Below, piece after piece: positions 8,861-8,931 of a stretch of 16,864 bases of DNA. The DNA is taken from the IMG/VR virus record IMGVR_UViG_3300028920_000354, one strand, 5' to 3'. The translations under genes were made by a program, and so were the position numbers. Origin of the DNA: a virus. Position 1 is the first letter of the stretch. Every line of letters begins with the position of its first letter. Below the pieces are notes generated by a model. It saw only the letters and a program-made list of their open reading frames with translations, searched no databases and had not been told where the DNA came from.

Positions 8861-8931
8861 ATCCCCGTAGCTCAGTGGCAGAGCCGGGCTCTCTAACAGC
8901 CTGGTCGTGAGTTCGAATCTCACCGGGGGTA
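8861..8931 (+). tRNA. tRNA with anticodon CUA (amber / UAG suppressor)
   Basis: Manual cloverleaf. Acceptor ATCCCCG/CGGGGGT with one G-U pair, U8, D-arm GCTC-AGTGGCA-GAGC, anticodon stem GGGCT/AGCCT, loop C-U-CUA-A-C, variable GGTC, T-arm GTGAG-TTCGAAT-CTCAC, discriminator A. Total 71 nt, no encoded CCA. Confidence 0.7.

Follow-up and report, generated by a model that had tools for sequence, protein, structure and literature searches.

The window, the whole 16,864-nt stretch of viral DNA under analysis (IMG/VR record IMGVR_UViG_3300028920_000354), holds a tRNA with a CUA anticodon at positions 8861–8931 on the + strand. It is confirmed as a real, well-formed canonical tRNA that is encoded by a phage and would read UAG, its form being far beyond what chance would produce. 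The reading favoured here, with moderate confidence, is that of an orphan, probably weak amber suppressor of Arg/Lys-type origin, located in the large tRNA island of a large phage that keeps the standard code.

The 71-nt tRNA is placed by ARAGORN at exactly these ends with the anticodon cta, in agreement with the CUA anticodon given in the preliminary description. The Rfam tRNA model RF00005 matches over its full length at 57.1 bits (gathering score 29; E = 3e-10 for the window), which lies inside the 48–72 bits spanned by the other six of the seven tRNAs that ARAGORN finds in the window. The acceptor stem contains 7 bp (A1-U72, U2.G71, C3-G70, C4-G69, C5-G68, C6-G67 and G7-C66) and is followed by U8, A9 and a D stem of GCTC/GAGC, with G18 and G19 present in a 7-nt D loop. 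The 7-nt anticodon loop reads C32 U33 C34 U35 A36 A37 C38, and it carries the sequence marks of an amber suppressor, namely CUA at positions 34–36, U33 and a purine at position 37. The variable region is a 4-nt GGTC, the T arm is GTGAG-TTCGAAT-CTCAC, the discriminator is A73 and CCA is not encoded. The positions of the tertiary interactions are all intact (U8-A14, G18/G19, G15-C48, T54-A58 and G53-C61). The clean cloverleaf described earlier, with a 7-bp acceptor, U33, A37 and a TTCGAAT T-loop, is borne out by this reading of the sequence and by the Rfam score.

As ARAGORN names every CUA tRNA ‘tRNA-Pyl’ by default, this identity was considered and rejected. The two share the CUA anticodon, and the C26-G44 pair of the suppressor could give it the 6-bp anticodon stem and 3-nt variable loop of tRNA-Pyl. 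However, tRNA-Pyl has a compact core without the G18G19 and T-Psi-C consensus, a single nucleotide between the acceptor and D stems (two in the suppressor), a 5-nt D loop and a pylS/pylBCD context. The suppressor is of the canonical elongator type, with G18G19, T54-Psi55-C56, TTCGAAT, U8A9, a 7-nt D loop and A73. No pyl genes are found in the 62-kb composite of the phage described below.

The window is 99.95% identical to a 95,131-bp ENA metagenome contig (ERZ27252253 k141_2989609), and fragments of it are also present in Logan and JGI assemblies. No near match to it was found among GenBank phages. A 62,128-bp composite was stitched from the ENA and JGI contigs L153, L148, L001, L003 and L154, which are 99.95–100% identical to the window. 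It starts with an HD protein, a 666-aa FN3 protein, a 929-aa protein and a PD-(D/E)XK nuclease, followed by a T4-like replication module consisting of an AAA protein, DnaB, gp32, UvsX/RecA and a DEAD-type helicase. An NAD+ salvage cluster, the window and further tRNAs amid small genes come after this module. The tRNA island comprises at least 25 tRNAs over 25 kb of the composite, and the CUA tRNA is the first of them. The credible genes of the window all lie on the + strand, and their products include a NADAR protein, a radical SAM enzyme, a 938-aa vault-type protein, a Nudix/NrtR protein, a GGDEF cyclase, a PcfJ-like protein, an RNA ligase, a 119-aa RF-1-domain protein, a HAD domain and an MmcB-like protein.

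The source appears to be a large, probably jumbo, phage, since the nearest homologues of its individual proteins sit on phage genomes of 200–735 kb; its longest contig measures 95 kb. Neither structural nor lysis genes were recognised in the 62 kb recovered of this phage. The 666-aa and 929-aa upstream proteins are not classifiable as structural because they have no homologues in GenBank phages. The features of the window on which the argument draws are the following.

1754–2599 (+): radical SAM enzyme, TAG-terminated; readthrough would add 3 residues.
8712–8857 (+): tRNA-like element; fold of -51.2 kcal/mol, z = -2.0.
8861–8931 (+): amber suppressor-type tRNA, anticodon CUA (ARAGORN; Rfam tRNA, 57.1 bits).
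8933–9280 (+): 115-aa ORF, called in the ENA record; no family match.
9785–12934 (+): rest of the tRNA island inside the window, with Lys(UUU) twice, Asn(GUU), Asp(GUC), Gln(UUG) and Trp(CCA).
13803–14471 (+): RNA ligase (PF09414), TAG-terminated; in an RNA-repair/translation-maintenance cluster.
14733–15092 (+): stand-alone GGQ peptidyl-tRNA hydrolase domain, 119 aa (Pfam RF-1, 3.5e-16).
15089–15592 (+): HAD phosphatase domain of ‘Swiss Army Knife’ RNA-repair proteins, TAG-terminated (HAD_SAK_2, 7.6e-28).

The ATG of the 115-aa ORF opens 2 nt after the 3′ end of the suppressor, so the tRNA sits in an mRNA-like operon and would need excision. Directly upstream lies the tRNA-like element. Its acceptor-like stem has 7 bp (AACGGGG/CCCCGTT), and within this stem are a perfect T arm (GTGGG-TTCGAGT-CCCAC) and approximately 115 nt. 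At its 5′ end and in its T-arm/3′ end, the element corresponds to an ordinary viral tRNA-Met(CAT) (L235 8515–8590). ARAGORN calls it at relaxed settings only, with a 57-nt ‘intron’, and its Rfam tRNA match is weak and sub-threshold. The possibilities are a tRNA that was interrupted or has decayed, and a novel tRNA-like RNA. An Rfam YrlA match (28.9 bits against a gathering score of 69), which covers the upstream T arm and the D arm of the suppressor, was rejected as an artefact of two adjacent tRNA-like pieces.

The remaining tRNAs of the window are interspersed with small ORFs, the GGDEF gene and the PcfJ-like gene, and the island continues downstream. At 9785–9938 (+), two tRNA-Lys(UUU) genes stand in tandem. 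Their bodies differ greatly, and the first gene has an atypical D arm and a score of 48 bits. The pair recalls phage tRNA-Lys variants that evade anticodon nucleases. Just before it, at 9546–9733 (+), lies a strong sigma-70-like promoter (TTGACT-17-TATAAT with TG, 11/12 matches), followed after approximately 115 nt by a terminator with a 16-bp stem; this unit may be a small RNA or a leader. At 11368–11388, the GGDEF gene and tRNA-Gln(UUG) share 21 nt, which are both the end of the GGDEF reading frame, TAA stop included, and the 5′ end of the tRNA.

Two further features of the region concern its protein-coding genes. The 938-aa protein (2610–5426, +) combines the Major Vault Protein shoulder domain (1.2e-26) with Vault_3 repeats, and such a vault-like protein is unusual for a phage. 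Its only homologues in GenBank phages are on LR756500, LR756501 and LR756503 (‘huge phage’, 462–735 kb), at approximately 42% identity. The NAD+ salvage and regulation cluster (L001 4967–9795 and window 378–6204) encodes an NAD synthase, an isochorismatase/PncA-like protein, NAPRTase, an NMNAT-like protein, NADAR and Nudix-NrtR. It resembles the NAD-reconstitution pathways with which phages counter NAD-depleting defences.

Comparison with approximately 660 labelled viral tRNAs suggests that the body of the suppressor is of the Arg/Lys type and not of the Gln type. With the anticodon masked, the top matches are Arg(CCU) and Arg(CCG), then Lys(CUU) and Asn, and the 30 nearest viral tRNAs comprise ten for Arg, five for Lys and none for Gln. 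Within the phage itself, the nearest body is that of tRNA-Arg(CCU) at 82%, and U72 and the GGGGU-A 3′ end are common to both. The phage’s own Gln(UUG) and Trp(CCA) tRNAs are unrelated to it, and the global-alignment score against Gln(UUG) collapses. A Tyr, Leu or Ser body is ruled out by the short variable region. The tRNA was also searched for, exactly and with the anticodon left open, which gave no match in IMG/VR or JGI metagenomes and a single chance match, not a tRNA, in GTDB genomes; no host or ancestral tRNA was thus found. BLAST against GenBank phages returned only generic matches of approximately 78% with mixed isotypes.

In combining a sense-tRNA body with a CUA anticodon, the suppressor is similar to laboratory and natural amber suppressors that sense tRNAs gave rise to through anticodon mutation, such as supE and supF of E. 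coli and psu1 of T4, and charging by a host synthetase is presumed here. Suppressors of the E. coli/T4 type are a single substitution away from Gln, Tyr, Ser, Leu, Lys or Trp tRNAs, whereas the closest Arg bodies would need at least two anticodon changes to yield the present tRNA, and a single change would suffice for Lys(CUU). Neither A20 nor C35, the determinants for ArgRS, is present in the suppressor, and A36 stands in place of the U36 expected for LysRS. Under the general identity rules established for E. coli, U35 and A73 speak for LysRS, and mischarging of CUA tRNAs is classically the work of GlnRS. On these rules, the suppressor would be charged with Lys (or Gln). Position 38 is C; among the 81 unique CUA tRNAs of viral origin that have this type of D arm, 78 show A38. 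The estimation of efficiency from position 38 rests on the idea of the extended anticodon. Together, C38 and the 4-nt variable loop suggest a sub-optimal, weak suppressor, and the efficiency of suppression is therefore probably low.

The most likely origin of the suppressor is the duplication of an Arg/Lys-type phage tRNA, the anticodon of which changed to CUA. It would be transcribed within an early or auxiliary operon, excised by host RNase P with 3′ processing and supplied with CCA by a CCA-adding enzyme. Charging would fall to a host synthetase relying on U35 and A73, LysRS being the most plausible and GlnRS the usual alternative. The charged tRNA would then compete with RF1 at UAG and cause partial readthrough, probably at low efficiency. 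The phage’s own genes would gain only short C-terminal tails, and in the host every UAG-terminated protein would be extended. The tRNA would have no role as a switch for a TAG-recoded block of genes. Its selective value, if any, would be accessory, through perturbation of the host or the buffering of nonsense mutations.

The alternative that survives best, although it is considered unlikely, is that the tRNA is a non-functional or non-decoding relic, i.e. an anticodon-mutated duplicate, in a rapidly evolving tRNA island, that is poorly charged or unused in translation and is either neutral or a decoy for nucleases that target tRNAs. The missing A20 and C35 for ArgRS, the A36 in place of U36 for LysRS, the rare C38 and the 4-nt variable loop are all consistent with such a relic, as is the possibly decayed tRNA-like element directly upstream. 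Nor do the nearest relatives (L017–L019) conserve the suppressor in their tRNA islands, and it is likewise missing from the tRNAs of the GGQ-linked viral loci considered below. Decay is argued against by the intact tertiary-interaction positions and by an Rfam score typical of the functional neighbours. The tRNA is also identical in the ENA contig k141_2989609, with zero SNPs inside it, but identity across two assemblies with an overall divergence of 0.05% carries little weight as a sign of function.

The standard code is used across all 62 kb recovered, a stretch that includes no recognised structural or lysis gene. Not one in-frame TAG occurs in the 76 + strand ORFs of at least 60 aa in the composite, and these ORFs end in TGA (34), TAA (31) or TAG (11, i.e. 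14%), with conserved enzymes among those terminated by TAG. The earlier statement that the window is in the standard code therefore holds, as TAG ends real genes there. Of the four TAG-ending ORFs that had been listed in its support, those at 1754–2599, 13803–14471 and 15089–15592 are real genes. The fourth, at 9961–10089, is doubtful, being a 42-aa ORF between two tRNAs that is absent from the ENA gene calls.

Reading TAG as sense restored no long ORF. Bridging stops, defined as single stops flanked on both sides by same-frame open stretches of 70 codons or more, numbered 7 for TAG, 20 for TGA and 10 for TAA in the composite. The corresponding counts were 17, 1 and 6 in the code-15 phage phAss-1 (OQ749652), and 10, 20 and 13 in the standard-code phage XacN1. 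The total length of ORFs of at least 300 aa in the composite rose from 25.2 to 29.7 kb with TAG as sense, against 48.4 kb in the control with TGA as sense. In phAss-1 it rose from 18.9 to 46.6 kb when TAG was sense, and this clear signal indicates that the method detects recoding. The long enzymes and the ORFs of 666–938 aa are intact. The GC content of the composite is 46.5%, the commonest stop is TGA and TAG is not depleted. No phage RF2 was found, the sole gene related to release factors being the 119-aa GGQ domain, which is without codon-recognition domains.

These results bear on the proposal of the preliminary description that the suppressor licenses a TAG-recoded late region, allowing TAG-interrupted structural and lysis genes elsewhere in the genome to be translated. 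Suppressor tRNAs are strongly associated statistically with recoding in gut phages and are strongly enriched in TAG-recoded ones, and recoding is often limited to late (structural, lysis) genes with the replication genes in the standard code (PMC13037316). The 62 kb recovered hold no recognisable genes of the late kind, and approximately 33 kb of the 95-kb contig, together with whatever lies beyond it, are outside the sample. Nonetheless, the predicted long ORFs restored only by TAG as sense are missing from the 62 kb, a stretch devoid of recognised structural or lysis genes, and no TAG-specific fusion of ORFs is seen where the same method detected the recoding of phAss-1.

Borges et al. described recoding-prone lineages as having a low GC content, TAA-dominated stops and depleted TAG, the opposite of the background found here. 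They also reported only TAG to Gln and TGA to Trp in cases where the code of the phage differs from that of its host, whereas the present body is of the Arg/Lys type. The C38 variant suggests a weak suppressor, and in place of an RF2 there is just the codon-independent GGQ domain. With 62 kb free of in-frame TAG and the hallmarks of recoded lineages absent, the proposal is not supported and such a code switch is considered improbable. The phage is similar to the code-15 phages (crAss-like, Lak and phAss-1) in that a CUA tRNA is placed in a standard-code part of the genome. It differs from them in that they contain Gln-type suppressors, many in-frame TAGs, a low GC content, TAG-depleted stops and sometimes RF2, as opposed to an Arg/Lys-type body, no in-frame TAG in 62 kb, 46.5% GC and no RF2.

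A closer likeness is found in large phages of the standard code. The Xanthomonas phage XacN1 (384 kb) encodes two CUA tRNAs per terminal repeat alongside 26 canonical tRNAs, and its authors reported that readthrough of 18 amber stops revealed nothing (PMC5852040). The Ralstonia phage RsoM2USA has 43 canonical tRNAs and one CUA suppressor (PMC8504454). As in the present phage, with 25 tRNAs in 25 kb, the CUA tRNA lies within a large island with small ORFs between the tRNAs, no readthrough target has been identified and the code is standard, here as seen over the 62 kb recovered. The tRNAs also share the same generic body, with the D arm TAGCTCAG...AGAGC and the anticodon loop CUCUAA. Their neighbourhoods are alike too, with an SPFH/Band 7-type protein and a RelA/SpoT-type enzyme in XacN1 and a vault-shoulder protein and an HD_4 protein here.

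However, no relationship to either phage was detected at the level of the genome, the RNA ligase (26% identity) being the only link. The present tRNA differs in having C38 in place of A38, a variable loop of 4 nt, A1-U72/U2.G71 and a 3′ end without an encoded CCA, and it occurs as a single copy in contrast to the two per terminal repeat of XacN1. The phenomenon nevertheless resembles that of the functionally unexplained CUA tRNAs of these two phages. An IMG/VR scan for the same D-arm type with a CTCTAA loop found this class in at least 120 contigs, many of 100–600 kb, and ARAGORN confirmed a tRNA(CUA) in 75 of the 80 loci listed from the scan. The neighbourhoods of approximately 10 kb around these CUA tRNAs are mostly without TAG recoding.

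The 13803–16262 (+) cluster downstream encodes the RNA ligase, a 72-aa ORF, the GGQ-only hydrolase, the HAD_SAK_2 phosphatase and the MmcB-like protein. For the 119-aa GGQ protein, in which the GGQ motif is present, alignments are confined to domain 3 of RF1/RF2 and C12orf65. On sequence grounds it is an ArfB/ICT1/C12orf65-like, codon-independent protein, and not a codon-specific release factor or RF2. Its homologues are widespread in viral tRNA islands, with 276 relatives in IMG/VR and tRNAs in 45 of 80 loci. In distantly related viral tRNA islands (L018 14460–14851; L159, L214 and L215), tmRNA genes adjoin RNA ligase or GGQ genes, which indicates that ribosome-rescue functions recur in such islands.

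A GGQ-suppressor ‘module’ was rejected, as there are no suppressors among the 441 tRNAs in the 80 viral loci with a homologous GGQ protein. These loci have no other genes in common with the present phage. In IMG/VR, the 373-aa protein and the RNA ligase have relatives of no more than 52% identity, none of them accompanied by a CUA tRNA, and the islands of the nearest relatives contain no suppressor. Since suppressors are missing from both sets of loci, the present one would be a lineage-specific addition without linkage to the GGQ factor.

The same loci weigh on the idea that the suppressor, the RNA ligase, the HAD phosphatase, the GGQ factor and the duplicated tRNA-Lys form a counter-defence or translation-maintenance module that helps the phage to survive host attacks aimed at tRNAs or translation. 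The window is indeed rich in such functions, with the ligase, HAD_SAK_2, the GGQ hydrolase, two tRNA-Lys(UUU) and the NAD salvage genes. GGQ proteins are common in viral tRNA islands, yet those 80 loci lack suppressors, and the reading of UAG counters no known defence. A module of this kind is considered quite unlikely.

An even slimmer chance is given to programmed readthrough, by which the suppressor would serve to give certain TAG-terminated genes isoforms with a C-terminal extension or fusion. In the 11 TAG-terminated ORFs of the composite, suppression would lengthen the product by 2 to 129 residues. The preliminary description had correctly predicted short extensions of +QEA, +QREEP and +9 aa. 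Beyond the residue inserted at TAG, the predicted tails are EA for the radical SAM enzyme, REEP for the RNA ligase, which gains 5 residues before a second TAG, and KHERLYSS for the HAD protein, which gains 9. The broader alternative offered there, a general reprogramming of termination, thus stands as to the short extensions predicted from the sequence, but there is no sign that the phage has adapted to them. Backup stops follow TAG no more closely than they follow TAA or TGA (Mann-Whitney p = 0.80), and closer backup stops as an adaptation to readthrough were rejected on this result.

The one arrangement in favour of programmed readthrough is on L003 (20137–20666), approximately 9.3 kb downstream of the end of the window. 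There, a 139-aa ORF (20137–20556) ends in TAG and is followed by AGA and then, in the same frame, by the ATG of a 128-aa ORF, so that UAG readthrough would yield a 139-aa/128-aa fusion protein. This arrangement is probably coincidental. Single-stop bridges are commoner for TGA (20) and TAA (10) than for TAG (7), one such case is expected by chance, and the other TAG extensions are short and featureless. The equivalent search in XacN1 found nothing (PMC5852040). The p value and the greater frequency of same-frame pairs at TGA and TAA therefore give no sign of adaptation or of programmed readthrough. Least probable of all is that late genes are TAG-interrupted and decoded as a basic residue, Lys or Arg, by the Arg/Lys-type CUA tRNA, with TAG still a stop in the early genes; TAG would then be reassigned to a residue other than Gln in a phage of intermediate GC content with T4-like replication genes.

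The orphan suppressor favoured here belongs to a small puzzle, that of amber suppressors carried by standard-code, tRNA-rich phages, in this case one that would read through one in seven of the phage’s own stops. It adds a divergent case, with an Arg/Lys-type body and C38, at the head of a tRNA island near genes for RNA repair and ribosome rescue. Were the late genes of this phage TAG-interrupted after all, recoding would extend beyond the low-GC gut lineages, possibly with an assignment other than Gln. The presence of a CUA tRNA alone is no evidence of recoding.
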